From positions 49,354-113,353 of the forward strand of contig JAAXWW010000003.1 of NCBI GenBank assembly GCA_013334765.1: 64,000 nucleotides of DNA, written 5' to 3'. The notes under the pieces are model-generated. The model worked only from the letters and a program-made list of their open reading frames with translations. It ran no database searches and had not been told where the DNA came from. The translations under genes were made by a program, and so were the position numbers. Of the stretch, positions 7,396 to 64,000 are shown one piece after another. The DNA is from Candidatus Moraniibacteriota bacterium (GTDB taxonomy: Bacteria > Patescibacteriota > Minisyncoccia > Moranbacterales > UBA2206). Within the stretch, counting starts at the first letter, position 1; the number at the start of each line of letters is the position of its first letter.

Positions 7396-7396
7396 A

Positions 7397-17094: not shown

Positions 17095-17139
17095 TTTCTT
17101 TCGGATGGCGAAAAAGGGCAGAAATCCCGCTTCTTTTCG

Positions 17140-36570: not shown

Positions 36571-36613
36571 CTTTAGAGTTTCCCATAGTTGAACGAAAAA
36601 GGCAAAGTTTTGA

Positions 36614-38821: not shown

Positions 38822-38833
38822 GATGGTTGGTAT

Positions 38834-40165: not shown

Positions 40166-40564
40166 TTATTCAGTCGTTTTTCCGTCAAATTCAGCGTCAT
40201 TAGCCTCGGCTTCTTCTTTGGTGGATCTGATGATTCCGTCCTTGTGATGAGCCGGAGAATAGATCGTATACATTTTCAGATCCTCAGTGGCGGAAGTGTT
40301 GATCACGTTATGCTGAGCTCCGGCAGGAACGATGATCGCCACTCCATCCTTCAGCTCATATTCATTCCCGTCAATAATGCATTTTCCTTCTCCTTTTTCG
40401 AAACGGAAGAACTGGTCGTTTTCCTCATGGACTTCCATTCCGATCTCCTCTCCTGGAAGAAGGCTCATAAGAACCAACTGACTGTTCTTTCCTGTATAGA
40501 GCACCTTGCGGAAATTAATATTTTCCACGGTTTCCTTTTCGATGTTCGCAAAAAATCCTTTCAT
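40166..40564 (-). CDS. cupin-domain protein
   Basis: GEEIGMEVHEENDQFFRFEKGEGKCIIDG...IVPAGAQHNVIN is a cupin_2 metal-binding pattern. Confidence 0.6.
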   Translation of the reverse strand: MKGFFANIEKETVENINFRKVLYTGKNSQLVLMSLLPGEEIGMEVHEENDQFFRFEKGEGKCIIDGNEYELKDGVAIIVPAGAQHNVINTSATEDLKMYTIYSPAHHKDGIIRSTKEEAEANDAEFDGKTTE

Positions 40565-40652
40565 ATTATTTTTTATTAATGGTTATGCTTGTATTATAAA
40601 TCCTAACAGCCGTAATTACAATTCATTAAATAAGCATGCACACTAAAGAAAC

Positions 40653-41879: not shown

Positions 41880-41941
41880 ATGTTTGATTTTAACTAATTT
41901 ATTTTACCTAAAATGCCAACTTCCAATAAAAACACTATCAG

Positions 41942-44595: not shown

Positions 44596-44620
44596 AAAAA
44601 AATACCTATCCAATGAGTGC
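44596..44620 (-). terminator. recurrent terminator motif T2 (degenerate copy 1 of 4)
   Basis: Plus strand AAAAAAATACCTATCCAATGAGTGC. Minus-strand RNA gives stem cacuca/uaggua (weakened) plus U-run. Confidence 0.4.
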
Positions 44621-44667
44621 TTCTATTTCTTGCAACTGGTTAGCAATTCTCAGTATTATAAACCTCT

Positions 44668-45261: not shown

Positions 45262-48200
45262 CTAATTTGCCTGAGTGTCAGCTGATGAACTGCTATCGCT
45301 GCTTGCAGAACCGGATTCAGAGCTATCGGACGCGGAATCAGTTGAACCTGAATCGCTATCCGAAGAGCTGTTTCCTGAAGTGTCAGTTGATCCGGAACCA
45401 GCCGATGAGCTTGAATCATCGCTGTCTGTGCCAGTTGCAGTTGTCGTTACTGCCCCGCTGCTATTGGGTACGTTACTGTCTACGCTACTCGGAACGTCAC
45501 TGTCATCACCTGAGCTATCCTCGGAATTATTCGAGCCATCGCTTGAAGTTGTCTTGGCGCTTTTCACTGAAATTGCCGTCCAGGAAAAATTCACATCATC
45601 ATCTTCTTTTTCTTTTATCATAATCTCAAATCCTTTGGATGTCACGTTCTTTACTTTATACTGGGTGGAAATAAAATTGTTCGGAGTGATAGTCACAATT
45701 GGCGCATTAGCATATTCTTTTTCAAATTTCACTTCCACTCCGGTGTCATCTGATTCAATGATGGCAAACCCGGCTGTATCAGAATTGAAAGTCACAATTT
45801 TGTCCGCTGTGACATTTCCAGCAAATTCCACATCATTTTTGAACACGACTTTGTCGATAAATTCAGCCAATTTCTTGAACACGGCTGGCCCCTGAAATTC
45901 CACTGAGCTCTTGAAAGTTACTCCACCGGAAACTTGCAGATCTTTCAGCTTCAAAGACAATTCCGTTCCGGTAATTTTGGCTTGCAACAGGGCTAGTTGT
46001 TCACTGATGTCGTTTAGGGCTTGTCCTTGAGCCACCAATTGAGCATCAACATCAGACAACTGCGACCCTGAAACAAAATCGAGACCTTCGATACGATTGG
46101 CTTGAATTGTATCAGCCACCACTGTTCCTTTAAAAACTGTTTTACCATCTTCCGAGGAAACAATATTTTGCGTACGCAAATCAAGCACGGTAATTTCATT
46201 AATATTAGCTTCGATTTCTCCTTGCTGATCCTGAATAGCCTTAATGGCAATAACACCAAAGCGATCGTAGGTGAGACCGTAACAATTATCCCCAGTTGAA
46301 ATATCACAAGCATCCGGGTCATCGGGAATATCAACTAGGTCTGGGAAAAGAGATAAGACATCTTGTGCAATAAAACCAAGTTCGGTTCTTGAAGATCCGA
46401 TTATATTGTACGTGACTGGATTTAATTCAAGCACCTTCTTTAAGGTCTCTGAATCTAAACTGGAAATGTTCTCTTTCCTTCTGCTATCAGAAGTAGCAGT
46501 CCAGGAAGTAGAGTCCTGAGCTAAGTAAACACCCGTATCATCACCATAATCACGAATTTTAAGTTTATCAGAATCACCGGAAGAAGAAATAATATGCCAT
46601 CTAGAAGCTCCACTGGAATTCTTAAAAATTAATTGTGGAGAGTAAGAAGCATTACCTGCCTGAATAACAAAATTTGTATCACTTGCATCATTGCCCATAA
46701 CACGCATGGTCGTCGCTCCAGCAGCACGGATATCAAGACCATAGCTAGGACTCGTCGTCCCAACCCCAACATTACCATTAGCTAAAACTGTAAGTCCCGA
46801 TCCGGCAGTGGAATTGGAAGCAATTCTGGCAATAATTCCATTAGTAGCAGCACCAGTGTTAGCAACATACAGAAGTCCGTTAGTGGAATTAAGTGAGGCA
46901 CTGCTTGAAGTAAGGCTCAGCAACCCACCAGTAGTAAGCGCATTACCGGTCATAGTGAGACCAGTTTGTGTAGTTGCCGTTGACCAATTCCAAGTTTGGG
47001 CATAATTGGTGTTATCTATAGCATTAGTATCTATTGCTGCAGCTAAAGCATCCATAGTGATACTACCTCCTGTGCTATCATAGCCAATGTTTTCAATATA
47101 GGCGCTTGGATATGGACCTGATCCTGATTGACCAATAAAAGAATATTGATTTCCACTCAAGAGAACTAATCTAACTTGGGTATCTACAGTAGGGGTGATA
47201 ACGGCGACAGCGTTATCCGCTACCGGAGCGGAATTAGATGCATTGCTACCACCATCAATTTGGCCCATTTCTCCAATATATGATGAACTGGTCGCATTGT
47301 ACCATTGCCATCTCATGTAACCACTGGTTCCAGAAAAACCAGCATATCCAACATTACCAGAAAGTCGGTATGACTTTCCGGCGGCAAGTGTAAATGTATT
47401 GTTGCTACTGCTGAAAGAAATATCCGAGCCTTGATGCGTTGCTAATGATGAATTGAATGCAACCGTGGTGCCGGCACTAAGGCTACTCTGCGAGGTGGAG
47501 GCGCGCGCTTGATAAAAATCATAAGAGTTGCTTGCAGTATCGCCACGATTATCAGCAATAATCCAGGAATTAGAACCGTCAGAACGAATAGTGACTGATT
47601 CATATTGTGAATCAAGTATAATACTATCAGTAGAAACATTTATTTTTTCACCACTATATGGTTCCACCATAACGGGATTAGTAGAGGCATCGGTCTTTAC
47701 TATCTCTATTTCTTTACCATCATTCCCAACGGCAGTAGGAAGTACTATGGATGAAGCTGTGTTAAAAGCGCTAGCTTTTATCAAATAATTCCAATCTGAA
47801 AGTATGCCTCCGCCTGAACCAAGAGTCATAACCGAGAGGGCACTGGTGCTGCTACCGCCAATAGCAGACCCGTTCCATTTTAAAGTGCCGGAATCATTGG
47901 ACAGAGCCACTCCGCCAATGTAAATTGTATTATTTGAAGCATATATTTCATTCCACTGCTTGGAAGAAGATCCTAGATTATAAGTATTGGTAGTTCCGGG
48001 CAAGATATTCCCATTTACTGTCACGTTGCCGTCTAGAACAATATTCCCTTTCAAGGTAACCGTGTCTAAGGCAGAACCAATATTTATCGTGTCGGCTGTG
48101 GTGTTATCTGTAGCAATGTTAACAGTTTTTCCGGCTGTTCCTGTAGCTATATTGACTGCGCCCGTCGAATTTGAATCAAGAGCAATGGTGCCAGTTCCAC

Positions 48201-51992: not shown

Positions 51993-52220
51993 TCAGCCCG
52001 CAGCAATCGATAAATAGAACAGCAAGACAAAATATCTTCTTGTTTGATTCTCATCCTTCAAGCCATTGAACGCCCCATATATATCTTTGGGAAAACAAAC
52101 GGTTCCCTTTCTGGGATTGGCGAGTTACATGCTTAGATTGAAAACGAAGGATGCAGCAAAAATGCTTAAAAAATATGCCCAGGAAACGAGTTCGTTCCAG
52201 GGAAAACAGAATATGGCAAC

Positions 52221-52245
52221 AAAAAAACACCCATCCAATGAGTGC
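52221..52245 (-). terminator. recurrent terminator motif T2 (copy 2 of 4)
   Basis: Plus strand AAAAAAACACCCATCCAATGAGTGC. Minus-strand RNA forms stem cacuca/ugggug with loop uugga plus U7. Confidence 0.6.
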
Positions 52246-52258
52246 CTTGATTTCTTAC

Positions 52259-52507
52259 AACAAGTTCGTAATTCTTTGTGATTAGTCCTGAGAATATAGA
52301 ATCGTATGCGTGAGCTGTACAAAACCCACGACTGCCTCCGCCGGTTGGCGGATTATTTGGCTCGGCTTGCCTTTGCTGTTCCCTGATTGCTCAGGGTACG
52401 ACCAGCGGGCGATATCGATATTCCTCCGCCACTTGCCACTTAAGGCAAACGGCGTTTCGTGAGTAATATTCTACGATATCACCATATCTCCCTAGAAAGG
52501 AGGTGAT
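52259..52507. repeat. direct repeat C1: orphan copy of 16S 3'-tail (12 nt) plus ITS, ~250 bp
   Basis: Aligns base-for-base with 62234-62473 (caacaag...ttcgtaattctttgtgattagtcctgagaatatagaatcgtatgcgtgagctgtacaaaacccacgactgcc ... ccgccacttgccacttaaggcaaacggcgtttcgtgagtaatattct ... tctccctagaaaggaggtgat). Diverges immediately after ggaggtgat, where it meets the stop codon of the GNAT-ANT gene. Confidence 0.85.
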
Positions 52508-52519
52508 TCGTGGGAGGAA

Positions 52520-53851
52520 TCAGAGTTTTATCCCAAATTTACTGCAAAGAGCGTCCATATCCTCGTGGTCACTATCCTTGAGTTTACGCTTTGTTCCATC
52601 GTGGGTCTTTACCAATTGTTCTGGACTTACACATCTCACTGTCTGCCCATCAATAATTCCTGAGCCTGTAAGCGAATTGCTTGAATAGCCATCCCAGTAT
52701 TCCTCCGCTATAACACTGCCCTTATCGTCAAGGCTAAAAGCGTGGATATCCAATTCGTGACCCTTGTCATCGCCCATAACCAAGTCCCACATCTTGTCTT
52801 CATCCCTTTTTATCTCATTATATCCCTTCGACTCCAGATATTCCCTCAGCTTTGTTAAGTTTTTGCGCTCAACGGCAACATCCAAATCCTCGTGACTTCT
52901 GGTTTGCTCGCCAAGAAGAGCATCTACTGCCCAGCCACCATCAATCCATATTTTAATACCCAAGTCTTCCAGCTTGGCGTATAAATCAATAACATCCTTA
53001 TCCTGCATCTCCTTTTTTACGATTTCCATCATTAGGCTTCCGCTTAGCACCCATTCTCCATTATGGAAAACTGTCCTGTCATTTGGCACTACTTTCACTT
53101 TCCTAAATCCAGCCTTCTCGTAGAGCTTTATCGCACCTTGATGAAATTCACTGGTCTCAAGCACGACCTTCTTCATTTCCAGCCTATTAAAAGCATAGCC
53201 TAGTATCAACCTTGTGACCTCCAATCCTATGCTTTTACCCCAGTAATTCTTATCTAAAATAAAGATGTTAAACTCGCATTGTTCTTTTCCCTGAAAACTA
53301 CAGAGCGAAGTATAGCCAATAAACTTATCGTCATTCGTATAAATTCTCCAAAATATCTCATCCTTTTCTTTAACCAGAAAGTTTTTAATATCCTTAGTTG
53401 TTCTAAAACCTACCATTCTTTTAGCGGAATACAGATATCCAATTATTTCCAAATCAGTGAGCCACGCCAAAAGCTGAGGATAATTTTCCTTTAAGAAATT
53501 CTTTTTCAAATTAACTTGGTTTCCTTGTAGAATCATACCATTCGCCATCCTTACTAATTCCCAATATTTTTTCTCACCAATTTCATTTTTAAATTCGGTG
53601 AGTTTAGCATCTTCAACCAGATGTTTAACAAAATCAATCTTTTTGTCTTCAGGTACAGCTTCGTGTTCTTTTTCAAGTTTGTTATACAGGTCTTCATCTG
53701 CCTTTGGAATCGGCTTGTATACAGCTCTAATCATATTTACCAAATGATTAGCAGCTTCATAAGCGACAAAATCATTCAGTTCCTCATCATACTGTTCCTT
53801 ATATAATTTTTTGAATTTTTCAATATCTTCTTTTGTGAGTGACATAGACAA
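52520..53851 (-). CDS. three-part fusion: helical N-domain, GNAT acetyltransferase, ANT(2'')/Lnu-type nucleotidyltransferase
   Basis: GNAT motif A region FILDKNYWGKSIGLEVTRLILGYAFNRLEMKKVVLETSEFHQGAIKLYEKAGF. C-terminal IWIDGGWAVDALLGEQTRSHEDLDVAV is the aminoglycoside-2''-adenylyltransferase/LinA-family NTase signature. Confidence 0.65.
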   Translation of the reverse strand: MSMSLTKEDIEKFKKLYKEQYDEELNDFVAYEAANHLVNMIRAVYKPIPKADEDLYNKLEKEHEAVPEDKKIDFVKHLVEDAKLTEFKNEIGEKKYWELVRMANGMILQGNQVNLKKNFLKENYPQLLAWLTDLEIIGYLYSAKRMVGFRTTKDIKNFLVKEKDEIFWRIYTNDDKFIGYTSLCSFQGKEQCEFNIFILDKNYWGKSIGLEVTRLILGYAFNRLEMKKVVLETSEFHQGAIKLYEKAGFRKVKVVPNDRTVFHNGEWVLSGSLMMEIVKKEMQDKDVIDLYAKLEDLGIKIWIDGGWAVDALLGEQTRSHEDLDVAVERKNLTKLREYLESKGYNEIKRDEDKMWDLVMGDDKGHELDIHAFSLDDKGSVIAEEYWDGYSSNSLTGSGIIDGQTVRCVSPEQLVKTHDGTKRKLKDSDHEDMDALCSKFGIKL

Positions 53852-53854
53852 GTT

Positions 53855-54427
53855 TTATAAGTCAGCCAACTTTTCAATACTTTGAATAACATCAGGCAAC
53901 TCCAGACAAGAGTCTTCACCCTCTATTGCACCAGAGAAATGTTTAGCGTTATGTTTTATTATAACCCCTGCTCCTAGTTTTTCTTTAAACAAGTCAGCAT
54001 ATTTCAAATCTACGTAAGGGTCATCATCTGAATGAATTACTACAAAACCGTTCTTAACTTTGCTTTTGATTTTATCCAAATCAACAGGCGTTTCAAAAAA
54101 AGTCTTGATTTCGTCATAACCGACATTTTCCGTAAATCCTGCTACAAATACGACTCCGCCAATTTTTCGATTATCATCTAGGCCTTCCAGATATCGCATA
54201 ATGGTTATACAACCCAGGCTATGCCCAATCAAATACAAATCTTCATCTGGTTCTTCCACTATTTCTTTCAACATCGGCAGCCATTCATTCAGTTTTGGTT
54301 TTTCAGTATTGGGAAAAGCAGGAACTTCGACTTTAAATCCCTTAGCTTCCAATTCTTTTTTAACCCAAGGATACCAGCAATATTCTGGATAACCCTCCCA
54401 GCAATGGATAACAATGGCTCGTTTCAT
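53855..54427 (-). CDS. alpha/beta serine hydrolase of the RBBP9/YdeN family
   Basis: AIVIHCWEGYPEYCWYPWVKKELEAKGFKVEVPAFPN...LIGHSLGCITIMRYLE. Confidence 0.7.
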   Translation of the reverse strand: MKRAIVIHCWEGYPEYCWYPWVKKELEAKGFKVEVPAFPNTEKPKLNEWLPMLKEIVEEPDEDLYLIGHSLGCITIMRYLEGLDDNRKIGGVVFVAGFTENVGYDEIKTFFETPVDLDKIKSKVKNGFVVIHSDDDPYVDLKYADLFKEKLGAGVIIKHNAKHFSGAIEGEDSCLELPDVIQSIEKLADL

Positions 54428-54442
54428 AAGTTTATAAATTAA

Positions 54443-54745
54443 TTATTCCTTTGGTTTACCCCACTGCCAGCCTGGTTTCTCTCCTTTCTTATAGGCAACA
54501 ATGATGAGAAGGATGGTCAATACAATGATTGGCAGCGCGAATGTCAAGAAATTACTTCCTGAATCGGGATTTCCTGGGATATCCTCTTCCCTGGCAAGCG
54601 CGAGACTCAGGATGAGCAAGACGTAGAGAAATATGACGCACCACCCCTGCCATTTCGCTGGCGTCCATCCCCAGCCGTAGAGTTTCCGCTTGAACCAATA
54701 GCCTTTCGGATTGTCTTTTAAGTATTCGACGTATTCTTTGATCAT
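54443..54745 (-). CDS. small membrane protein
   Basis: 100 aa, two TM helices. Confidence 0.4.
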   Translation of the reverse strand: MIKEYVEYLKDNPKGYWFKRKLYGWGWTPAKWQGWCVIFLYVLLILSLALAREEDIPGNPDSGSNFLTFALPIIVLTILLIIVAYKKGEKPGWQWGKPKE

Positions 54746-54797
54746 TTCCTTGTTCCAATCTTATCGAAACATTCAAATTATTTTATTCACTATCAAA

Positions 54798-55301
54798 TCA
54801 ATTACCTAACCTTCTGCACTCTTCCAACCACTTATTAAAGGCTTTATAAAATTCTCCGTTCTTTTTCAAATCATCCCTGATAACTTCAATATTCTCATTA
54901 GTCATTATCTCGTGACTTTTCTCATCAGAAAGAAGATCCATTATTGGAACGGCAATCTCCGTGTCGTTTTCCCCGTCCCATTCATTGACATGAAAAACGC
55001 CAGAAAGCCCACTATCCCATGTCGCATCGATATTTTTCCATTCTCCGTCAATCTTCATTTCGAGATAAACATGCGTGCTATTGTCATCATGCTGAGCCTC
55101 ACATACGCCTTTAGGCAGTTTCAGATCGCTCCATCTGAAACTGCAAACCCGATACCTGCACTCGTATCCAAGATTCTCAAACGCTTTCTTCAGTAGCATA
55201 TGCTTTCCACTGCAACAGCAATCATTTTCGCCAAGCGAGACTGGTATTTTGTATGGTATATCCCTGACCTGATTGAAAGCATTGACCAATTTATTTTTCA
55301 T
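54798..55301 (-). CDS. transglutaminase-like cysteine-peptidase-fold protein
   Basis: CCCSGKHMLLKKAFENLGY (Cys), HVYLEMKIDGEW (His), NIDATWD (Asp) in the canonical order. Confidence 0.45.
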   Translation of the reverse strand: MKNKLVNAFNQVRDIPYKIPVSLGENDCCCSGKHMLLKKAFENLGYECRYRVCSFRWSDLKLPKGVCEAQHDDNSTHVYLEMKIDGEWKNIDATWDSGLSGVFHVNEWDGENDTEIAVPIMDLLSDEKSHEIMTNENIEVIRDDLKKNGEFYKAFNKWLEECRRLGN

Positions 55302-55304
55302 AGG

Positions 55305-56333
55305 CTATAGTTTCCTGATTATCACATCTTTCAAATATTGATTCATGAAATCAGTTTTTTCGCCTATTTTAGCTTTGCCATCCGAAACGAACCTCGCCGA
55401 AAGAGGCTTCTTGTATTTGTTGGATAATCCTTGGATGGTCTTGAGGATGTCAACCACTTTGCCCAGTTCCTCATCAACGCCGATAGGATAAGTGTCGATA
55501 CCGAGTCCTGAATGAAGCGACAGGAAAATGTTCCGTTCAATCGAAAAATTTCCTTTCTCATATTCCTGAGCCAGCTCGAAATCCTCAAGGCACGGGAACA
55601 TCAGTCCGCAAAGACCGATAGGCTTCGGATTGCTCTCTTTGATGAATTTGGTTATTCTCATGTATACATCGCTGACAACGGAATCATTAAAGCTTGGCCT
55701 CATTGCCTTGATGAAATTTATAAGACTGCTCTTCCCTTCGAATAGTGGGGCGATCGACGAATCGATTCCTAGATAATCCTTGTCCTGACCGAATAATCCG
55801 TCAATTTCATCCCAAATATCCTTCATTCTATTGAACCATTCTTCCAGCGAATTGCAGCCGTCTGCCAAATCATTAGGTTGGAGTCCGATTGAGAATCCTT
55901 CCTTTTCATAAGTTGCCGACGGGAAATACGGGCTTGATGGAGAATCGTTGAATACGTAGGAGAATTGGAATGTCCTCGCTGAATTTCCCTTTATTATCTC
56001 AAAAAGTAGCTCAGCATGTTCCGTGTTTATCTCCTCTGATGTCAAATCAACATTGAATGATATGCCTTTCTCAGCTCCCAAAAAATGACCCATCTGCTTC
56101 TTAGCTTCATCCATAGGAATCGTCCCGATATTCAGGAGAATCGATTCGTCCTTGACGGATTGTCCCAAATCTTGGAATGTTTTTCCGTTTGAGCAGATTC
56201 TTTTGGTTTGGATTTCAAAACCTCTGTCTTTTAAAACGTTTTCGATCTCGCCAAGCCGCCTCAGCGTCTCCTCGCTAGGATCATGAGAAAAACAGCAGAT
56301 TGTCCTGATAATCTTATTGCCCATATATTCCAT
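55305..56333 (-). CDS. hypothetical protein (possibly UPF0210/DUF711-like)
   Basis: 342 aa, mixed alpha/beta. No definitive motif. Confidence 0.4.
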   Translation of the reverse strand: MEYMGNKIIRTICCFSHDPSEETLRRLGEIENVLKDRGFEIQTKRICSNGKTFQDLGQSVKDESILLNIGTIPMDEAKKQMGHFLGAEKGISFNVDLTSEEINTEHAELLFEIIKGNSARTFQFSYVFNDSPSSPYFPSATYEKEGFSIGLQPNDLADGCNSLEEWFNRMKDIWDEIDGLFGQDKDYLGIDSSIAPLFEGKSSLINFIKAMRPSFNDSVVSDVYMRITKFIKESNPKPIGLCGLMFPCLEDFELAQEYEKGNFSIERNIFLSLHSGLGIDTYPIGVDEELGKVVDILKTIQGLSNKYKKPLSARFVSDGKAKIGEKTDFMNQYLKDVIIRKL

Positions 56334-56374
56334 TTTACTTAAAAATTACCGCATATCCCACCGGGACTTAATTC

Positions 56375-57433
56375 CTATCCGAAATAATTCTCCACAGCAA
56401 ACTCGAACTGTCTCAAAAACAGCTCTTTGAAATACGAAATATTGTTCTGCTCATAAAACAGCAAGACCGCTTTCTTATATTCACCCTCATCCATGCTTCG
56501 ATAAGAAAGAGGGCAAGAATCGAAAGATTGCAGGATCGCATTCCCGCTTAGCCGGCTGGTGCGCTTGTTGCCATCCACGAACGGCTGGATATAGGCAATA
56601 AGCAGCATCAGGATGACCGCTTTTTCGAAAGCGTCCTGCTTTTCATTCACAACCTTGCAAGCTTTTTCCAAGGCTTCTCTGATCTGGAACTCATTATCCA
56701 ACGGCTTATAATTCGTTCCGGTTATTCCCACTAAAGTTTTTCGCAAATTTTTCGTGACATTCAAACCGTCAACTAACATGGAATGAATGTTTTCTATTTT
56801 AGAAACGGATACGGATTGAAATTCATTCTTGTTGCTGCCGATATATTCCAAGGCTTTCTTGTGGTTGAGAATCATAGCGGCTTCTTCTTTGGAATGGCCG
56901 TCTGCTTCCTTTTGGTTCTTGATCAGCTGTTCCGTTTCCAAAAGGCTATAGGTATTCCCTTCTATTTTTGAAGATTTCCAACTGAAATCGATGTTCAATC
57001 TTTCGATTTCTTTCTTGAGCGCGTCAGGAGAAACATCCTTGATTTTATGCCTATAGGTTTCATTCAAATCAGAGAGCTTGTTTTTTTCAACTTCAGTGAA
57101 GATATCCTTCAGTTGTTCGAAAATATCGAAATTGAATTTCTCTTTCACTTCCCGCTGGTCGACATCATTGGCAAAATACTTCTCAACATCGATCTTTTTT
57201 ATAATCGGATATCTGGAAGAAAGTTTGTAGGTGACAGCTCGTCCGGCGGTACCTTGCCTTTCTATCAGGCCCAGCCCCAGCATTTTTTCCAAATCCCTAG
57301 AGATGGTCATCCTAGTCACCTTGCCCAGTTCTTTTTCTATATGCTCGATTATCTGACCGCCAGAAACAGTCCCTTTTTCTTCAATAAAAGAGAGGGTTAT
57401 TTCCTGCCTTCTGTTTAGCTTTTCAGTTTTCAT
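56375..57433 (-). CDS. Fic-family protein with N-terminal winged HTH
   Basis: Fic motif IQPFVDGNKRTSRLSGNAIL (HPFx[DE]GNGR with Q substituting for the His). N-terminal GQIIEHIEKELGKVTRMTISRDLEKMLGLGLIERQG wHTH. Confidence 0.75.
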   Translation of the reverse strand: MKTEKLNRRQEITLSFIEEKGTVSGGQIIEHIEKELGKVTRMTISRDLEKMLGLGLIERQGTAGRAVTYKLSSRYPIIKKIDVEKYFANDVDQREVKEKFNFDIFEQLKDIFTEVEKNKLSDLNETYRHKIKDVSPDALKKEIERLNIDFSWKSSKIEGNTYSLLETEQLIKNQKEADGHSKEEAAMILNHKKALEYIGSNKNEFQSVSVSKIENIHSMLVDGLNVTKNLRKTLVGITGTNYKPLDNEFQIREALEKACKVVNEKQDAFEKAVILMLLIAYIQPFVDGNKRTSRLSGNAILQSFDSCPLSYRSMDEGEYKKAVLLFYEQNNISYFKELFLRQFEFAVENYFG

Positions 57434-57445
57434 ACGAATATAATA

Positions 57446-57549
57446 GTAACATTTTTATGCCTTAAATGTAACATTTGTGTTACATTTAGTCAATCAAGCC
57501 ATTTATTTTTACATTGAAATGGCTGATATGAACCATTTTATTGTAACAT
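57446..57549. promoter_or_regulatory. GTAACA(T) repeat cluster including a 10-4-10 inverted repeat, upstream of the fic gene
   Basis: gtaacat at 57446, 57468 and 57543. Perfect IR aaatgtaaca-tttg-tgttacattt at 57464-57487. Sits between the -10-like tattat/tatatt and the fic ATG. Confidence 0.5.
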
Positions 57550-57636
57550 TTTATCCTTATATTCCGACTATATGAGATCAATCCCCATTTCATGCACTTG
57601 TTCCGCCTCGTCATTGCTTAAGACACCAAGATATGT

Positions 57637-58498
57637 TCACTTCCTGAGCTTTGGGTATTTTCCTTTGATCAGCTTGATAATCAGTGTCTTAAAGGTCACC
57701 GCATCTTTATATTCATAATTTTGATCGATATTCACCTCTTCAGATGGATATTCTTTTTCAATTTCGATTTTCAATCCCGCTTCTTCAAAAGATTCCAGAT
57801 ATTGGCCAAAATCTATGGCAGCATTTTTTATGGAAACCGACGACTCGCCGCGCTTCAAGATTATTGGAACGAAATTATTCTTGATTTCTTTTTCATGATC
57901 TCCTATATAGGCTACGTTCGTTTCGATCAAGACTTCTCCGCCCTCTTTCAAGCTATCGCTTATATCACGCATCGCTTTTTTTTATATCAGTGCTATAGAC
58001 CAAGCTGAATCGGGAAAAAACAATATCGAACTTCCTTTCGAAAGCTGGCAAATTATTTATATCCCCATTCACCACTTCGAATCGCCTCAGATCTTTTTCC
58101 TCCTTTCTCTCTTTTGCCTTTTGCACCATCGAGCGGCTCAGATCGATACCCAAGACTTCCTTAGCTCCTCTTTGGCAGAACAATTCGGAATAACGGCCGT
58201 TCCCGCAGCCGTGATCGAGAACTGTCTTCCCCTCGAAACTCTCCGGTATCAAGGATTCGAAGTATTTATCAGCTTCCGTCTTGTTCTCACCGCCTTCCGC
58301 ATCCTTGCCGATAGTTTCATAATATTTCTCTGTTATTTCTTCACTATAGATGCTCTCTGATTTTGGCATGAATTTTTCCATAAAAAATAGATTATCCTCA
58401 GGCATATTTAATATATACATTATATCCCAGCTTAACCAACAAAAAAACACCCGCCTGCTGAGTGCAAAATAAAAAGAGGCTATCGACATTGTCGACAT
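57637..58498 (-). pseudogene. class I SAM methyltransferase split by a frameshift at a homopolymer (A8 on the coding strand)
   Basis: ORF 57965-58498 carries VLDHGCGNGRYSELF (motif I). ORF 57637-57972 carries the downstream LKEGGEVLIET block. They overlap by 8 nt at the T8 run 57976-57983. Deleting one base fuses them in frame. Confidence 0.6.
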
Positions 58499-58503
58499 CC
58501 TCT
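58441..58503 (-). terminator. tandem terminator module T2+T1 (copy 3 of 4)
   Basis: Plus strand AAAAAAACACCCGCCTGCTGAGTGC (T2), then agagg-N19-cctct hairpin with A-run (T1). The minus strand gives two successive hairpin plus U-run terminators. Confidence 0.55.
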
Positions 58504-58518
58504 AGGGAGAAGACCAAT

Positions 58519-58566
58519 TGGACTTAGATGGATTCGAACCTCCGACTACCCGGATGCTAATCCGGC
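58519..58566 (-). other. tRNA 3'-half remnant (anticodon arm, T arm, 3' acceptor strand), homologous to the tRNA at 62001-62074
   Basis: Minus strand ccgga-ttagca-tccgg-gtagtc-ggagg-ttcgaat-ccatc-taagtcc-a parallels ccggg-ctagca-cccgg-ggtagtc-ggggg-ttcgaat-ctccc-caggccc-a of the intact tRNA. The would-be 5' half is the coding C-terminus (RTSAA*) of the helicase gene. Confidence 0.55.
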
Positions 58567-58568
58567 AA

Positions 58569-60452
58569 CTATGCCGCTGAGGTACGGACTAACTCTTCCA
58601 GCTTTTCCCGACCGATTATGTGCAGCTCGGACACCGCCCGAGTAAGCGCCACATAAAGGAGGTCTCTGTCTATTTTTCTTTTTTCTTCAGCGAAATCCTT
58701 GTATTTGTCATCCGCGTAAGATGCGAACATTTCCCTGCTGATCCCGACCAGGATAACGACGTCGAATTCCACCCCTTGAGACTCGTTCATCGTCATGACA
58801 TGGACTTTTTCGTTGTCGGAAAAGAATTCCCGGAAATCCGAAAGATACCCGCTCTCTTTGGCCAAAATGCCGACAGTGGAATAATCCTTGTCTTTGAGGA
58901 TTTTTCTGACCTGTTCGATTTCCTTATCCTTCGTTTCCAGAACATATTCTCCTACCGCCGCCCCATCCCTGAGCTGATCGATGATCTCGATGCCATATCC
59001 AAGCTTCTTGATGAATTTGAGGATGTTCTTGGTATTGCGATAGACCTTTTCCAAAACGACTTTCCTTTCCCCGTCCATCCGCTCATCGATATCGTCCCAC
59101 TGGCGGATCGTTCCCAGTTTCACCTGCTGGCCCATATCGCCGACATAAATGACAGCCCGGGTCCTCTCATTCACGCACGTCTTGATGAGGTTCAGCTGAT
59201 CAGGCAGATAGTTCTGGAATTCATCGATCACGGCCAATGAATATTTCAAAGGGACAGGCCCGCTTTTCTTCTTCACCTTCCCGTTCTTCTGTTCGACATA
59301 ATATTCCTTCACCACGCTTAACTCCTTATTGCGCCTATGGAAAATCTTCAGAAGAAGGGTCAGATCGATCCTGTCATATATGTTCCCGGCTTTCTGACTG
59401 CGAAACAGCTCCTTCTGGCTATCGCTGAAATGTGGTCCATAAATTTTTTCCAGCATTGAAAGATCATTGCCGATGAGATTCCTAGGCAGCTTCGCGAGGG
59501 CTTTCAGTTTCTGGAATTCATAGAGATCCTTCTCATATTCCGAATCCCCGTATCTATCAACGAAAACTCCATCCATTCCGAGAATCTTGAAAGCCCACTT
59601 CTGAAATGTCGTTATCTCAACCTCATCGATGCCGAGCTCCGCCAGGAGATGCGAGAAATATTCCTTCGTTCCTTCGTCTTGGACGAATACGATGATCGAT
59701 TTACTAGCATAGAGATGGGACAGATCCGGAGACTGGGCCAGATAGGCGACCCGATGCAAAGCCAATGTCGTCTTTCCGCTTCCTGCCGGACCGGAAATGA
59801 GGAATGGTCCGACATGATGGGCCCTGATCACCTTGTCTTGGGCCTTTTCCATCTGGGCCACGATTTCCGGCAGGACGAAACCGGTTTTCTGAGCGGAAAA
59901 ATATTCCTCATAAACCAGCTCCCTCGGCGCATCGATCCCTTCGGTCGATAGGAATTTGATCTTTCCGTCCACTATCATATATTGATCCTTTCGGAGGAGC
60001 CTCGCCTTCTGGATCATGCCGTCCGGCCGCTTATAGCTCACGTCTCCTGGTTTTTCGAATCGCATAACGGAAGCCGGGGCTACCCAGGAATAGATCGATT
60101 TCTCATCGAAACCGAATTTTCCGAAATATATTTCCGACTCCTTCTTGTCATCTGGAAAAAGAATATCGCATCGCACGAAATATGGAGAGCCCTCCAGATG
60201 CGCAAGCTCCCCCGTTCTTTTCTTGCCATTAGCCAGAATTATATTCTCAACCATCTGATTGGCATAGGAAAGGCTGCTGATTCTCTCTTTGCTTGATTTC
60301 AGATTGTTTTCCAGCTGCTTGAAGCCGGCTTTGATAGCGGCACGAACGTCGGCCAGATGCGTTCTGGCTTGGGATAGGATTGTTTCCTTATTGATCATAG
60401 GGATTAAAAAAAGACTTATGCATAAGCCAGGAAATCGCCCTTTCGGATACAA
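58569..60452 (-). CDS. UvrD/REP-superfamily (SF1) DNA helicase-like protein with ~200-aa N-terminal extension
   Basis: Walker A GPFLISGPAGSGKTTLALHRVAYL, motif II AVIDEFQNYLP, C-terminal VHVMTMNESQGVEFDVVILVG (motif VI region). Confidence 0.65.
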   Translation of the reverse strand: MYPKGRFPGLCISLFLIPMINKETILSQARTHLADVRAAIKAGFKQLENNLKSSKERISSLSYANQMVENIILANGKKRTGELAHLEGSPYFVRCDILFPDDKKESEIYFGKFGFDEKSIYSWVAPASVMRFEKPGDVSYKRPDGMIQKARLLRKDQYMIVDGKIKFLSTEGIDAPRELVYEEYFSAQKTGFVLPEIVAQMEKAQDKVIRAHHVGPFLISGPAGSGKTTLALHRVAYLAQSPDLSHLYASKSIIVFVQDEGTKEYFSHLLAELGIDEVEITTFQKWAFKILGMDGVFVDRYGDSEYEKDLYEFQKLKALAKLPRNLIGNDLSMLEKIYGPHFSDSQKELFRSQKAGNIYDRIDLTLLLKIFHRRNKELSVVKEYYVEQKNGKVKKKSGPVPLKYSLAVIDEFQNYLPDQLNLIKTCVNERTRAVIYVGDMGQQVKLGTIRQWDDIDERMDGERKVVLEKVYRNTKNILKFIKKLGYGIEIIDQLRDGAAVGEYVLETKDKEIEQVRKILKDKDYSTVGILAKESGYLSDFREFFSDNEKVHVMTMNESQGVEFDVVILVGISREMFASYADDKYKDFAEEKRKIDRDLLYVALTRAVSELHIIGREKLEELVRTSAA

Positions 60453-60586
60453 TTCGTCCCTGCTTATGTTAAGTCGGTCTGGCTTGAAGTGGTGTGATTC
60501 TCAGTTACAAGAATTTTTCAGTAGATTCAAGGTAACATATTGGGGAAGTTTGTGCAATAATTGTCATTTCATCGCCTTTCGACCAA

Positions 60587-61861
60587 TTATTTTTTAGTTG
60601 CCTTTTTCTTTGGCTTAACAGTAAGCGTAAGATCATATTCTAGGTTATTTTCTTTAAGTTCATATTCTTCCTTATAAATTTTTTTAAACAATTCCTTAAA
60701 TTTTTTATTTTTTTTCACCTCTCTAAAAAGTGGCCAATCTCTATATCCAGCCTTGGAGATAAACTCTCCGTCCTTGCCAATTTTTTTCATTATCAAAAAA
60801 GCAGCTTCATAATTTTCTAGGATAATTTCTTTGGCAAGTTTAAAATCATTTGAGGATGCACTCCAATCCCAACTATTGATAATTTTAAACGCATCTTCCT
60901 TATTACCTCCCAGTTTCCTAGATAAAGCTTTGTTTATGATAAAAACGTTTTTGTTTACATCGCTTGCATGTTTTTTTAGAACATCCGTCGAAAAATCCAA
61001 GAGAACATCAGCCAATGCAAATGATTGCCTATCTATAAGATCATAGCAAATTTTATTCAGATTATCATCTGCTTTTGAAAGCTCATTCGGTTTTAACTTT
61101 CTCCAAATAACATGAGTTAGCTTTACTCCCAATTCAATCAAGCAATTACAAATATCATCCAAATATTGAGGAGAAACGCCCAATTCCAATCCTGGCGCAT
61201 ATTCATGACTTAGCTTTACTCCAGACTGCTTGCAGATCGCGACGTATTGGCTACCGATAATTCCACCACAATGAACAAATAAATTTCGTCGCTCTGTTAT
61301 CTCTACAAATTTATGCCAAATCGATAAATCCTTACGCAAAGACATATTCAACTTTTTTTCTATCCATTCAAAATGAAATGTATGACTTTCTCTTAAAACA
61401 CTTTCGACCTCCTTTTCTATTATATAATTTTTCGCCTCATTAATATTTTTGAAATTGGTTAGTGCTGAGAAATTAACATTTTTTTCACAATTGTTAAGGA
61501 TTTCAGGGTTTAAAAGAATGATATTTCTTATTATGATACCTATAAAAAAATCGAATTCACTAATAAGTGAAACCGATATACTCCTTGGAACTATTCTTAA
61601 TGATGCTTTTGATATGTTAGTATCATTTTTGAGCTCTTCAAAATATTTTCTATTTTCGTGTTTAATTTTAAAAGACTTATTCGTTACATTCTTACCATTT
61701 TTTTTAATAAAATGAGCTAGTTTGCTCTGATTAACCTTGTGACTCACCTCAATTAATCCCATTGTTAAATGCAGTGCACGTTTTAAGCTATTTATATTTT
61801 TAATGAAGTTTTCTAAATTTTCTTCAAAGACATTGGTATTTTTTACCTTTTTACTATTCAT
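60587..61861 (-). CDS. HEPN-like (Rx4H) Abi-type protein, hypothetical
   Basis: Start moved to MNSKKVKNTN (RBS-compatible, avoids the terminator motif). ITERRNLFVHCGG contains R-N-x3-H, like Abi_2/HEPN active sites. 28 percent GC. Confidence 0.4.
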   Translation of the reverse strand: MNSKKVKNTNVFEENLENFIKNINSLKRALHLTMGLIEVSHKVNQSKLAHFIKKNGKNVTNKSFKIKHENRKYFEELKNDTNISKASLRIVPRSISVSLISEFDFFIGIIIRNIILLNPEILNNCEKNVNFSALTNFKNINEAKNYIIEKEVESVLRESHTFHFEWIEKKLNMSLRKDLSIWHKFVEITERRNLFVHCGGIIGSQYVAICKQSGVKLSHEYAPGLELGVSPQYLDDICNCLIELGVKLTHVIWRKLKPNELSKADDNLNKICYDLIDRQSFALADVLLDFSTDVLKKHASDVNKNVFIINKALSRKLGGNKEDAFKIINSWDWSASSNDFKLAKEIILENYEAAFLIMKKIGKDGEFISKAGYRDWPLFREVKKNKKFKELFKKIYKEEYELKENNLEYDLTLTVKPKKKATKK

Positions 61862-61925
61862 ATATCTTGGTTTATATAATAAGCTAGTAATATTTAAATT
61901 GTAACATAACGATTCTAAAAAACAT

Positions 61926-61985
61926 AAAAAACACCCATCTACTGAGTGCAAAAAAAGAGGCCATCGACAATATCGACAGCCTCTA
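61926..61985 (-). terminator. tandem terminator module T2+T1 (copy 4 of 4)
   Basis: Plus strand AAAAAACACCCATCTACTGAGTGC, then agaggccatcgacaatatcgacagcctct. On the minus strand both hairpins are followed by U-runs. Lies immediately 3' of the tRNA pair. Confidence 0.6.
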
Positions 61986-62000
61986 TGGGAAAGGCCTGAT

Positions 62001-62074
62001 GGGCCTGGGGAGATTCGAACCCCCGACTACCCCGGGTGCTAGCCCGGTAGCTCTACCGCTGAGCTACAGACCCA
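62001..62074 (-). tRNA. tRNA, anticodon uncertain (anticodon loop CUAGCA(C), formally AGC)
   Basis: Minus strand gggtctg-ta-gctc-agcggta-gagc-ta-ccggg-ctagca-cccgg-ggtagtc-ggggg-ttcgaat-ctccc-caggccc-a. Acceptor 7/7 with one G-U, good D and T arms. The anticodon arm is either a perfect 5-bp stem with a 6-nt loop or a 7-nt loop with a G-G mismatch. Confidence 0.6.
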
Positions 62075-62091
62075 CATTCAAAGGAGATTTT

Positions 62092-62167
62092 GGAGCAGCG
62101 GGCTGGATTTGAACCAGCGACTTCACCCCTGGCAGGAGTGCACTCTACCAACTGAGTTACCGCCGAC
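62092..62167 (-). tRNA. tRNA-Gly (anticodon GCC), CCA encoded
   Basis: D arm actc-agttggta-gagt, anticodon arm cactc-ctGCCag-gggtg, T arm gctgg-ttcaaat-ccagc. Discriminator U plus CCA. Position 1-72 is U-C by my reading, so the exact 5' end needs checking. Confidence 0.65.
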
Positions 62168-62233
62168 TCACGTTTCGAAAAAAAGGATCTTAAAAACACT
62201 TAGATAAATAAATGCTTTTAGGATCCTTTTTTT

Positions 62234-62473
62234 CAACAAGCTTTCGTAATTCTTTGTGATTAGTCCTGAGAATATAGAATCGTATGCGTGAGCTGTACAA
62301 AACCCACGACTGCCGTTTTTATTTGGCTCGGCTTGCCTTTGCTGTTCCCCGCCGAGGCGGGGTCGACCAGCTGACAATGACCATACCCCTCCGCCACTTG
62401 CCACTTAAGGCAAACGGCGTTTCGTGAGTAATATTCTGCGGTCATCGTCGTATCTCCCTAGAAAGGAGGTGAT
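62234..62473. repeat. direct repeat C2: authentic 16S 3'-tail plus ITS (partner of 52259-52507)
   Basis: See C1. This copy is contiguous with the 16S rRNA body. Confidence 0.85.
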
Positions 62474-62594
62474 CCATCCACAGCTTCCGCTACGGATGCC
62501 TTGTTACGACTTCACCCTTGTTACCGATCCTACCGTGGTCCCTGCTTTGAGACAGGGCCTTCGGGCATTACCAGCTCCCCTGGTGTGACGGGCG

Positions 62595-63457
62595 ATTATC
62601 TTCGTGAAACTACGAATTGATGTTCCCATCGTGCCTGCGGATTTCCCGCACACGACGAGCTCTAATGCATTTTTTGCTTGAGGTTATAGATTTTCCTTAA
62701 ACCCGCTTCTTTCAAATGGTCTTTATCCAAAACCATCTTGAGAATCTTGCAAAAAATTTCAAAGTCACCTTTCTTTGAACGTAACATCAAAGAATTCTTT
62801 TTGAAAAACGGAATAATAATCTTATCCAAGTCATTTCTATTGGCTACTTCAAAGCGGTAACAATCTTGATGATTGGCTCGTTTATCTCCTTGGAAATAAA
62901 CGTTGCCGCAACCGAAGAATTTTTTGAGCTCATAGAGGACTTCTTTGTCTTTCTCTATAAGTTTCAAGAAAAATCTCGGCTCAACCTTTGTCCGTCTTCG
63001 AACTTCTTTCGATGAATCAGGATCCTTCACATAGATTGTGAAACTTCCCTCTCCATCGACTAGGCCAACGATATAATTTGGATTCAATTTTTCCATATGC
63101 ATGGAGTGAATCCTTCCCTGCTTTGCAGCAGGTACTACGATTCAGCTGACTTCTTACGCTGCGTAAGTTTCATTACCTGCTTTCATTATAACATGAAAGC
63201 AGAACAACGTAAGATCTCCCGGGGTCATTTATTATTCTATTCCTCGCATTCCAACACGTCTTTTCGATGCATTTTCCCTAACCTCACCACCCAATCATAG
63301 GTCAATGCGACGCTTTTATTGCTGGACTGCGATCTGTTTCCAGATCCTTCACCGCCACCCTCGCGAATGGCGACTATCTTTCAACTGCGCTCTTTGTGAC
63401 GAACAAAGAGGAGGAGATTTGAACTCCTTGGAATAACAAACTGCCCGGCGCTTTTAT
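62595..63457 (-). mobile_element. group I-type intron in 16S rRNA (between ...TTGTACTCACA and CGCCCGTCACACC, E. coli ~1391-1397), encoding a LAGLIDADG endonuclease
   Basis: The universally contiguous sequences TGTACACACCG/CCCGTCACACC are separated by ~863 nt here. The insert carries the 146-aa ORF. Boundaries are approximate to within a few nt. Confidence 0.75.
62662..63102 (-). CDS. LAGLIDADG homing endonuclease (single-motif, ~146 aa)
   Basis: YIVGLVDGEGSFTIYV is a LAGLIDADG motif. Size and basic C-terminal region fit intron-encoded HEs. 30 percent GC inside an rRNA gene. Confidence 0.8.
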   Translation of the reverse strand: MHMEKLNPNYIVGLVDGEGSFTIYVKDPDSSKEVRRRTKVEPRFFLKLIEKDKEVLYELKKFFGCGNVYFQGDKRANHQDCYRFEVANRNDLDKIIIPFFKKNSLMLRSKKGDFEIFCKILKMVLDKDHLKEAGLRKIYNLKQKMH

Positions 63458-63524
63458 TGTGAGTACAAGATCCGAGAACGTATTCACCGTGACATGGCTG
63501 ATTCACGATTACTAGTGATTCCAG

Positions 63525-63561
<37 letters not shown>

Positions 63562-64000
63562 AGATCGGCTTTTTGAGATTGGCTCCACCTCGCGGTTTGG
63601 CAACCCTTTGTACCGACCATTGTAGCACGTGTGTCGCCCAGGGCGTCAGAGGGCCATGCTGATTTGACGTCATCCCCACCTTCCTCCCGGAACCCTGGTC
63701 ACGAAATATTCATGAACAAAGTTCCGGGCAGTCTCGCGTGACATATATAACACGCGATAGGGGTTGCGCTCGTTTCCTGACTTAACAGAACACCTTACGG
63801 CACGAGCTGACGACAACCATGCAACACCTGCTAGGCACCCTCGAAGGCTTGTATGTTTCCATACAATGCAGCCTAGTTTCAAGCCCTGGTGAGGTTCCTC
63901 GCTTACCGTCGAATTAAACCACATGCTCCACCACTTGTGCGGATCCCCGTCTATTCCTTTGAGTTTTAAGCTTGCGCTCGTACTTCCCAGGCGGCATACT

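Follow-up and report, generated by a model that had tools for sequence, protein, structure and literature searches.

Tandem duplication followed by random loss, with tRNA pseudogenes at the junctions, is a model drawn from organelle genome rearrangements. Homology-facilitated illegitimate recombination can follow natural transformation. Islands of the tyrosine-integrase type that reside in tRNA or tmRNA genes are catalogued in Islander (PMC4383910); a literature search on islands in CPR bacteria found nothing specific. Competence has been reported in CPR Saccharibacteria (PMC10187176). HelD is a class I RNA-polymerase recycling factor of B. subtilis (PMC7749165, PMC7749167, PMC8655204). The survey of this protein in PMC8655204 does not include the Patescibacteria, and a literature search on HelD in CPR bacteria likewise found nothing specific.

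The window studied here is a 64-kb stretch of a metagenome-assembled Moranbacteria genome. The tRNAs, terminators and outer repeats described below, and the two genes between the module copies, lie on its minus strand. One segment resembles the islands catalogued in Islander in that an intact tRNA is present, a tRNA repeat stands at the other end, variable genes lie in between, and related genomes have an uninterrupted site. It differs from them because the repeat, some 150 nt long and 77% identical, takes in essentially a whole tRNA along with two terminators instead of a displaced 3' fragment, because there is no integrase, and because helD, one of the enclosed genes, belongs to the resident core and keeps its synteny.

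A tRNA-terminator module and its decayed copy

Two copies of one module bracket a 3.4-kb segment. Copy B begins with tRNA-X (62000-62073), which ARAGORN calls at 61998-62074 as 'tRNA-??? (ag)' with a 2-base 'anticodon', and which scores 48.1 bits against the Rfam tRNA model (62000-62073; gathering score 29). Its cloverleaf is intact, with stems of 7 bp (acceptor), 4 bp (D), 5 bp (anticodon) and 5 bp (T), and is the minimum-energy fold found by RNAfold (-35.2 kcal/mol). The anticodon loop has 6 nt (CUAGCA) instead of seven and offers no assignable anticodon, and the Rfam model requires a 3-nt insertion in the anticodon arm. The cloverleaf appears to be under selection.

A pattern scan of JGI metagenome contigs yielded no orthologue with the same anticodon arm. 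Three identical matches lie in a high-GC efflux gene and are due to chance. A search of genome contigs with the 5' half, GGGNNNGTAGCTCAGCGGTAGAGC, found no orthologue either, and its matches were generic Val, Lys, Met and Ile tRNAs of many phyla. A tRNA-Gly(GCC) gene at 62091-62166 (tRNA search, Rfam and repeat comparison) precedes tRNA-X by 17 nt and falls outside the duplication.

tRNA-X is followed by a spacer and tandem terminators (61926-61999; folding z-score -3.4). The T1 hairpin spans 61956-61984 and the T2 hairpin 61931-61949, with a U-run to 61926. ARAGORN, Rfam and the terminator scan thus agree with the initial annotation, which had described an intact tRNA followed by two hairpin-plus-U terminators. 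That annotation had also noted that the module recurs at about 75 percent identity, and alignment recovers it as a direct repeat: 58438-58589 and 61921-62071 agree at 77.3% of positions in a 154-nt alignment (E = 3e-27).

The tRNA part of the repeat is longer than the 3' half that had been reported. The repeat covers tRNA positions 3-73 together with the spacer, T1 and T2, and reaches 75 nt beyond the tRNA 3' end. Positions 1-33 match at 23 of 33 sites (binomial p = 4e-7, fixed register), with 6/9 matches in the acceptor 5' strand plus positions 8-9 and 12/16 in the D arm. Past the T2 U-run the similarity ends abruptly (12 matches in 30 nt downstream).

Copy A of the tRNA, at 58519-58591, is a decayed, nearly full-length tRNA pseudogene that was identified by alignment. 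Its acceptor stem has no Watson-Crick pairs, the D stem is broken, and folding gives no cloverleaf and an ordinary energy (z = -0.96). ARAGORN does not call it, and Rfam finds no match even at E <= 1. It is not a functional tRNA. A compensatory change (G31-C39 to A31-U39) has preserved the anticodon stem; as in copy B, the loop has 6 nt (UUAGCA). The dead tRNA part is still 62-81% identical to copy B.

Since the tRNA similarity begins at position 3, the last 7 codons and the stop codon of helD (58569-58592, LVRTSAA) are tRNA-derived. The 5' third of copy A is translated as the HelD C-terminus. Helicase coding sequence had been thought to replace the tRNA 5' half; the coding end is instead that half in decayed form. 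The homology of helD to L002, the closest relative, stops exactly where the tRNA-X homology starts. The idea that the junction truncated helD is only weakly true, because in most homologues the native C-terminus lies 4-5 residues after KLE.

The terminators have fared differently. A spacer with T1' and T2' occupies 58441-58518 (folding z-score -2.8), with T1' at about 58475-58503 and T2' at 58447-58465 followed by a U-run to 58441. All four terminators are detected as hairpin-plus-U-run structures by the terminator scan. T1 is identical at 25 of 29 positions between copies and T2 at 21 of 24, and the hairpins are preserved despite the substitutions, two of which convert G-U pairs in T1 to Watson-Crick pairs. 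T1' and T2' are the only terminators behind helD, and we infer that they have been kept as its predicted terminators.

Two genes between the copies

The helicase gene (58569-60398, 609 aa) was assigned to the HelD-like SF1 NTPases from NCBIfam, PDB and homologue matches. Its best solved-structure match is B. subtilis HelD (PDB 6WVK_H; E = 1.9e-27, residues 27-274 and 389-594), which covers the N-terminal arm region as well as the SF1 motor. The NCBIfam model HelD_BACSU matches with E = 8e-44; its score of 150 bits is below the equivalog cutoff, which is 419. Like HelD, the protein has an SPYFxRxD motif and a Trp motif (IYSWVAP against IYDWRAP), and the homologue in L141 sits 1.3 kb upstream of rpoB-rpoC. 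It differs in being shorter (609 against 774 aa) and in the changed D and R of the DWR motif, although the Trp motif is partly kept. The PADLOC matches to GajB and NERD+UvrD reflect a generic SF1 C-terminus.

Homologues 50-91% identical occur across Patescibacteria. The GC3 of helD (0.60) is close to that of the core genes RsgA (0.62), Mur (0.62) and RecQ (0.66). The promoter and leader (60399-60556) are conserved in six genomes, being kept in L002, L004, L007, L140 and L141. This leader forms a long hairpin (GACTTA...TAAGTC) with a U-run directly 5' of the ATG. It has no Rfam match; attenuator-like and conserved, it is a testable lead. Taken together with the L002 synteny, these features argue against the view of the helicase as cargo of an element. 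As judged from sequence, the gene is a resident one encoding a predicted HelD-type RNA-polymerase recycling factor, and mobile defence cargo is ruled against.

The neighboring gene (60587-61861, 424 aa) is HEPN-like by its motif. Its product is all-alpha, with an invariant E..TERRNLxxH, and ERRNLFVH is invariant in 26 homologues. Both properties are shared with HEPN toxins and abortive-infection proteins (Rx4-6H). The gene also resembles these systems in occurring solo and patchily in Bacteroidota, Proteobacteria and Patescibacteria, and one source labels a homologue 'HEPN domain-containing protein'. Unlike them, it matches neither the HEPN Pfam models nor a PADLOC model, and searches of Pfam, PADLOC, NCBIfam, PHROGs and PDB (the last for structural matches) gave no significant match. 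No partner gene was found. Fold searches with a model of the protein returned generic helical repeats.

With a GC content of 30% and a GC3 of 0.27, the HEPN-like gene stands 18 GC points apart from helD. The two genes had been proposed as a possible defence pair. They occur together in none of five other helicase contexts (L002/L003, L004-L006, L007/L136, L140 and L141) and in none of three other HEPN-like contexts (L008/L009, L010/L011 and L012). The HEPN-like gene was probably acquired separately from helD.

Partial copies of the 16S operon tail

The module is not the only partial copy of the 16S operon tail. Repeat searches place the last ~15 nt of 16S rRNA with the spacer ITS1 at 62227-62473, and a pseudo 16S tail with ITS2 at 52251-52507. 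Over 260 nt these outer repeats agree at 84.6% of positions, and within them a perfect 72-nt repeat flanks a 9,978-bp unit. T2'' (52222-52245) comes after the pseudo 16S tail and ITS2. A fourth T2-type terminator, T2''', lies with ~30 nt of ITS-tail sequence at 44596-44650 (repeat search), in a region 82% identical to 52221-52275. All four T2-type hairpins are on one strand between 44.6 and 62 kb, where none would be expected by chance.

The 52-kb and 62-kb repeats had also been considered as group II intron 3' ends because Rfam reports a D1-D4 match at 63110-63185. They are in fact the 16S 3' exon and spacer, and the ORF adjoining the Rfam match encodes a LAGLIDADG endonuclease.

In L139, L137 and L002 the 16S-ITS tail leads straight into a T2-type terminator, and the tail is therefore interrupted in this genome. 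L002, whose ITS is 96% and whose helD is 91% identical, has the order 16S, ITS, T2, three genes, helD, three genes, RsgA, tRNA-Arg, YceG. Its helD thus lies 2 kb behind 16S, between 16S-ITS and RsgA, and it carries neither a tRNA-X copy nor the tRNA repeat. An 18-nt match between the region downstream of L002 helD and window positions 52171-52188 is weak and no better than chance (E = 0.046).

The order is 16S, ITS, T2, Fic in L139. It is 16S, ITS1, T2, insert, Fic, 100aa, pseudo-16S tail/ITS2, T2 in L137, and Fic block, ITS2, helD, RsgA in L007. The 5' junction of the ITS2 copy, TC(C/T)CCCACGA followed by ATCACCTCC, is common to L007 and L137. In this genome helD precedes the Fic block, whereas in L007 it follows it. 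Downstream of the pseudo-module come T2', MT, 111aa, Fic and further genes, and from the relatives' orders T2' occupies the place of their operon terminator. The Fic block has a GC3 of 0.30-0.50, below that of helD. L137 and L136 have inserts at this locus that carry tyrosine-integrase genes, which indicates that site-specific elements use this neighborhood.

Origin of the second module

We favor, with moderate confidence, recombination rather than an integrase as the source of the copy at 58441-58591, which would duplicate the operon tail. The duplicated unit, tRNA-X with T1 and T2, would be the end of the resident 16S-tRNA operon, and general recombination, homologous or illegitimate, would have acted in a rearrangement-prone tail. 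The pseudo-module would go with the downstream block of T2', MT, 111aa and Fic, which in relatives follows the 16S terminator. The HEPN-like gene would be a later, independent insertion. At present the tRNA part is dead and supplies the last 7 codons and stop of helD, while T1' and T2' would be retained to terminate this gene. The state of this lineage before the rearrangement was not found in any genome, and the order of events is therefore modeled rather than observed.

Two routes are both compatible with the data, and we prefer neither. In the first, a tandem duplication would have spanned tRNA-X to the end of helD, with subsequent loss of the redundant halves, at a cost of one duplication and two deletions. 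No remnants of deleted copies were detected near T2, T2'' or the helD promoter. As in tandem duplication-random loss, there is a full-length tRNA pseudogene at a new gene boundary, gene order is unlike that of relatives, and one copy is functional while the other has decayed. The present case differs in concerning a bacterial chromosome, in having an intermediate that is modeled only, and in needing two further deletions and the HEPN-like insertion.

In the second route, a second operon-tail-plus-Fic block would have been imported from a related strain and joined illegitimately at the helD stop codon. This resembles homology-facilitated illegitimate recombination in the sharp junction at that codon and in the different GC3 of the imported-looking block. 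The A-B divergence of 23% also approximates between-strain neutral divergence, as gauged from L002 (24-34% at 4-fold sites). The likeness is limited in that no donor was identified and competence is known in Saccharibacteria, not Moranbacteria. The sequence just past T2' matches the relatives' post-terminator flank at ~14 of 19 nt, which is statistically non-significant.

An unlikely alternative is a site-specific element that entered tRNA-X and, while restoring the gene at one end, displaced a copy to the other; the HEPN-like gene and helicase would be its cargo, and its integrase would since have been lost. Intact tRNA, insert and direct repeat do form the canonical footprint of such an event (PMC4383910), and the tyrosine-integrase genes that L137 and L136 have at this locus fit such a history. 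An insert in the operon tail is suggested by the unbroken tails of L139, L137 and L002 and by the foreign composition of the HEPN-like gene. helD points the other way, with its native composition, its own leader and its conserved position in L002. A short, near-identical 3' fragment would be expected at the displaced end, whereas the repeat found is only 77% identical and takes in almost all of the tRNA as well as 75 nt with the terminators; this argues against the att footprint originally proposed. The supposed cargo genes also differ by 18 GC points and were never together in eight other contexts. The major ORFs of the window, including the HEPN-like gene and helD, have no Phage_integrase, recombinase or transposase match, in line with the annotation's statement that no integrase is present, and a scan of viral contigs for the tRNA-X arm pattern and T2 found nothing.

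A broader and more doubtful possibility is that the single 16S operon tail of Moranbacteria is a recurrent attachment and recombination site that accretes copies of the tail, taken here to run from the last ~15 nt of 16S through the spacer to the T2 terminator. An ancient Fic island would have entered the 16S 3' end carrying a replacement 3' end, leaving the pseudo-16S-tail/ITS2 of this genome, L137 and L007. Each later insertion would have added a T2-ended tail copy, including the tRNA-X module, and tRNA-X could be a non-decoding tRNA-like RNA with a selectively maintained cloverleaf and 6-nt loop. If true, this would be an rRNA-gene counterpart of island accretion in tRNA genes.

An assembly artefact or strain chimera, with a mis-join at the helD/pseudo-tRNA boundary or of the whole repeat-flanked 10-kb unit, is very improbable. 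The sequence is a metagenome-assembled genome, the 72-nt perfect repeat flanks that unit, and a second assembly, Logan contig L001, breaks within the ITS repeat at both ends. However, L001 is contiguous and identical across both tRNA-X copies, the HEPN-like gene, helD and the Fic block. The longest exact stretch shared by copies A and B is too short to mislead an assembler, and L137, from another sample, has the same outer ITS1...ITS2 architecture. It is barely credible that copy A is an independent functional RNA gene, a second unusual tRNA or tRNA-like element: its intact anticodon stem and 6-nt loop favor this, but the unpaired acceptor, broken D stem, ordinary folding energy, lack of Rfam and ARAGORN calls and overlap with helD coding sequence count against it.

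On the favored explanation of recombination in the operon tail, the module is a rearrangement scar. It cautions that a tRNA-like repeat beside 'defence-looking' genes is not automatically an island, and that an apparent UvrD helicase whose N-terminus looks unusual can prove to be a housekeeping HelD. For a poorly known phylum, the locus offers as testable leads a hot spot behind 16S, recognizable by its conserved 16S 3'-tail duplicates, and a tRNA-like gene, apparently under selection, whose anticodon loop has 6 nt.

The tRNA-X module and its second copy

On the minus strand, the 3' part of the 16S rRNA gene and the spacer behind it (ITS1) are followed by tRNA-Gly(GCC) (62166-62091), a second tRNA gene termed tRNA-X (62073-62000; ARAGORN and Rfam) and two hairpin-plus-U terminators, T1 and T2, which were located by a terminator scan and end at 61926. 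Next in this order are a 424-aa ORF (61861-60587), a 609-aa helicase ORF, helD (60398-58569), the unit of tRNA-X, T1 and T2 once more (58591-58441) and a methyltransferase gene (MT), all on the same strand. The intact module is called copy B and its partner copy A.

The repeat is real and far above chance. Positions 58438-58589 and 61921-62071 are 77.3% identical over 154 nt (BLASTN, E 3e-27), and MAFFT and a repeat finder concur. The initial annotation recognized this repeat but misread its extent, since it limited the recurring tRNA sequence to the 3' half. Counted in fixed register, the copies agree at 6/9 positions of the acceptor 5' strand with positions 8-9, 12/16 of the D arm, 14/19 of the anticodon arm, 17/21 of the variable region and T arm, 5/8 of the 3' acceptor, 8/15 of the spacer from tRNA to T1, 25/29 of T1 and 21/24 of T2. 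The flanks match at 5 of 12 nt upstream of the tRNA and 12 of 30 nt downstream of the T2 U-run. These segment-wise identities, including 23 matches over tRNA positions 1-33 (p 4e-7), place the limits of the duplicated unit at tRNA position 3 and the end of T2. helD takes its last seven residues (LVRTSAA) and its stop codon from the decayed 5' portion of the pseudo-tRNA.

Copy B (62000-62073, minus strand) folds into a perfect cloverleaf whose anticodon stem has 5 bp and whose anticodon loop, CUAGCA, has 6 nt. ARAGORN can assign no anticodon, and the Rfam score of 48 bits is reached only with 3 nt inserted into the anticodon arm, around which there are two extra nucleotides. The 5' half is similar to Lys, Val, Met and Ile tRNAs, and scans of JGI metagenome contigs and of viral contigs did not recover the arm pattern. 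In copy B all 21 stem pairs persist despite 23% divergence between the copies, which suggests that copy B is under selection. Copy A yields no tRNA call at E<=1, lacks acceptor and D stems and has an ordinary folding energy. Its anticodon stem is retained through a compensatory change and its loop is likewise 6 nt, so the odd anticodon arm is older than the duplication. The hairpins of both copy A terminators are preserved, with two T1 substitutions that turn G-U into Watson-Crick pairs; this would fit a role as helD terminators.

Two other tRNA genes, 86 and 95 nt long and with greatly enlarged anticodon loops, lie downstream of the Fic block in a relative (L139 15071-15273, plus strand; ARAGORN 'Asn(att)' and '???(gg)', Rfam 53 and 49 bits). 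Near this locus, Moranbacteria tRNA-like genes may repeatedly have aberrant anticodon arms.

Copies of the 16S operon tail

The 16S gene (62459-64000, minus strand) is interrupted by an insertion of 864 nt (63458-62595, minus strand), which contains the ORF of a LAGLIDADG endonuclease (62662-63102) as well as a weak Rfam group-II-D1D4-1 match (63110-63185). Because of this insertion the Rfam 16S match ends at 63407, whereas the gene truly ends at 62459 (GGATCACCTCCTTTCTA). Its final ~15 nt and the spacer (62473-62227, minus strand) recur with 84.6% identity at 52507-52251 (minus strand), including 72 nt at 100% identity, at a spacing of 9,978 bp. A T2-type terminator directly follows the second copy. 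Four hairpins of this one type (GCACTCAnnnGnnGGGTGTTTTTT), with none expected by chance, lie on the minus strand within 18 kb, at about 61.9 kb (61926-61949), 58.4 kb (58442-58465), 52.2 kb (52222-52245) and 44.6 kb (44596-44620), and there are none elsewhere in the 64-kb window. The 16S-ITS unit of relatives ends with the same terminator type (ACACC...GGTGTTTTTT). Given the four hairpins and the tail repeat, the tRNA-X module is one of several partial operon-tail copies that end at T2. An AT-rich hairpin at 62177-62234 may contain a degenerate fifth T2-type copy.

A pseudo-16S tail with its spacer (ITS2) is found downstream of the Fic block in three Moranbacteria genomes, those of the window, L137 (tail/spacer repeats at 2175-2471 and 7264-7581) and L007 (9445-9640). 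All three have one 5' junction, TC(C/T)CCCACGA joined to ATCACCTCC, and this outer duplication is therefore ancient. Each pseudo-tail is similar to the true spacer of its own genome, which suggests concerted evolution. The copy holds an anti-Shine-Dalgarno-like sequence inside a CTCCC...GGGAG hairpin, and could represent a former att site located at the 3' end of the 16S.

Several other genes of the window were recorded. In a 443-aa protein (52520-53851, minus strand) a GNAT acetyltransferase is fused to an aminoglycoside 2''-nucleotidyltransferase-like domain; the stop codon of this gene abuts the pseudo-16S tail. A gene flanked by two T2-type terminators (45262-50637, minus strand) encodes a protein of 1,791 aa in which collagen repeats are combined with a Peptidase_S74 (endosialidase chaperone) domain and an H-type lectin domain, an architecture that resembles a phage tail fibre. 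A ResIII helicase-nuclease gene and an N6/N4 DNA methylase gene form a low-GC pair (9492-13957, minus strand; GC3 0.29-0.38), probably a restriction-modification system that was acquired. At 16544-17637 (minus strand) two truncated ORFs of the RhuM family lie side by side, accompanied by a 40-nt repeat (17060-17099 and 17673-17712, 98% identical).

The genes between the module copies

The 609-aa protein is predicted to be HelD-like. NCBIfam HelD_BACSU matches its N-terminal region (E 8e-44, a score under the equivalog cutoff), and its top solved-structure match, B. subtilis HelD 6WVK (E 1.9e-27), spans the N-terminal arm region, with the Trp motif partly conserved. The biology of HelD is treated in PMC7749165, PMC7749167 and PMC8655204. 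Full-length homologues with 50-91% identity occur throughout Patescibacteria; one lies 1.3 kb upstream of rpoB-rpoC (L141 10001-20086, plus strand), a proximity that fits an RNA-polymerase-related role.

A promoter (TTGCAC...TATGTTA) and leader of ~160 nt (60399-60556, minus strand) upstream of helD are conserved in six genomes (also L002 2470-2640, and L004, L007, L140 and L141). The leader looks like an attenuator, with a long hairpin (GACTTA...ATAAGCAGGG...GCTTAT...TAAGTC) and then a U-run that stops 5-12 nt short of the start codon. It matches no Rfam family, and compensatory changes occur at only two pairs among the six sequences.

Searches of Pfam, PADLOC, NCBIfam, PHROGs and PDB gave no match for the 424-aa protein. 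An ERRNLFVH motif invariant among its homologues and a confident, all-alpha AlphaFold model make the label 'HEPN-like' plausible but unproven. The homologues are solo genes in unrelated contexts, scattered over Bacteroidota, Proteobacteria and a few Patescibacteria. The proposal that the two genes are a helicase-HEPN defence cargo was not borne out: helD has a conserved leader and a GC3 of 0.60, the level of the window's core genes, whereas the GC3 of the HEPN-like gene is 0.27, and among the helD and HEPN loci compared the pair occurs together in the window alone.

Origin of the second module

The order in L139 is 16S, ITS, T2-type terminator and Fic. L137, whose Fic is 90% identical, has 16S, ITS1, T2, an interval of DUF5320, DUF134, two ORFs and an integrase, then Fic, a 100-aa gene, pseudo-16S-tail/ITS2 and T2; it contains 300-nt direct repeats 5,089 bp apart. 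L007/L136 has phage-like genes, two integrases, Fic and, farther on, pseudo-16S-tail/ITS2, helD, Patatin and RsgA. The closest relative, L002 (ITS 96%, helD 91%), has 16S, ITS, T2, three small genes, helD, three genes, RsgA, tRNA-Arg and YceG onward, and is collinear with the window from RsgA onward. Tyrosine integrases lie directly upstream of Fic, two in L136 (2304-9891, plus strand), accompanied by terminase large subunit, ParB and KAP NTPase, and one, split, in L137 (4614-5716, plus strand). These integrases mark the region from the 16S terminator to Fic as an insertion hot spot. Between tRNA-Arg(CCG) and YceG, where the gap in L002 is 45 nt, the window has 5.3 kb of extra genes (36570-41941, minus strand; Na/H exchanger, cupin, GH130, glycosyltransferase), which may be an insertion at the tRNA-Arg 3' side.

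In this clade helD is a resident gene, positioned upstream of RsgA and close to the 16S tail. The window and L002 are homologous as far as the last helD codons, the exact point at which tRNA-X homology begins. The pseudo-module (tRNA part 58519-58591) precedes MT, a 111-aa gene, a Fic promoter region 93-98% identical to those of L137-L139, and Fic, which is the position of the relatives' operon terminator. We conclude that the module is probably the head of a second operon-tail copy associated with the Fic block, rather than the distal att site of an element importing helD and the HEPN-like gene.

Such a copy could have arisen by tandem duplication from tRNA-X to the helD end and later loss of redundant parts, which would account for helD standing before the Fic block in the window but after it in L007. 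Alternatively, a related strain may have been the source of an imported operon-tail-plus-Fic block that was fused illegitimately to the helD stop. The lower GC3 of the Fic block compared with helD, and a divergence between the module copies close to the 24-34% neutral divergence to L002, fit import. Both routes, duplication-loss and import, are compatible with the data. A search for remnants of lost duplicate copies found none, and the match of the copy A downstream flank to relatives' flanks is short and not significant.

Generation of the tRNA-X repeat by a site-specific integrase seems improbable but retains some weight, because relatives clearly have integrase-bearing inserts at this locus. 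The initial reading as an integrative element holds to the extent that a hot spot interrupts the tail of the 16S operon, without a tRNA-3'-end att site or a helicase-HEPN defence cargo. As that annotation had stated, no integrase is present: integrase, recombinase and transposase domains were found in no major ORF of the 64-kb window. It is unlikely that the repeat is an assembly artefact, as a second assembly of the locus (L001, a Logan contig) is identical across 52443-62272 and the aligned copies have no long exact stretch in common.

The tRNA-X repeat is a rearrangement scar of an ordinary kind. Its surroundings are of more interest, namely the conserved pseudo-16S-tail/ITS duplicates, the tRNA-X with its 6-nt loop and the helD leader.
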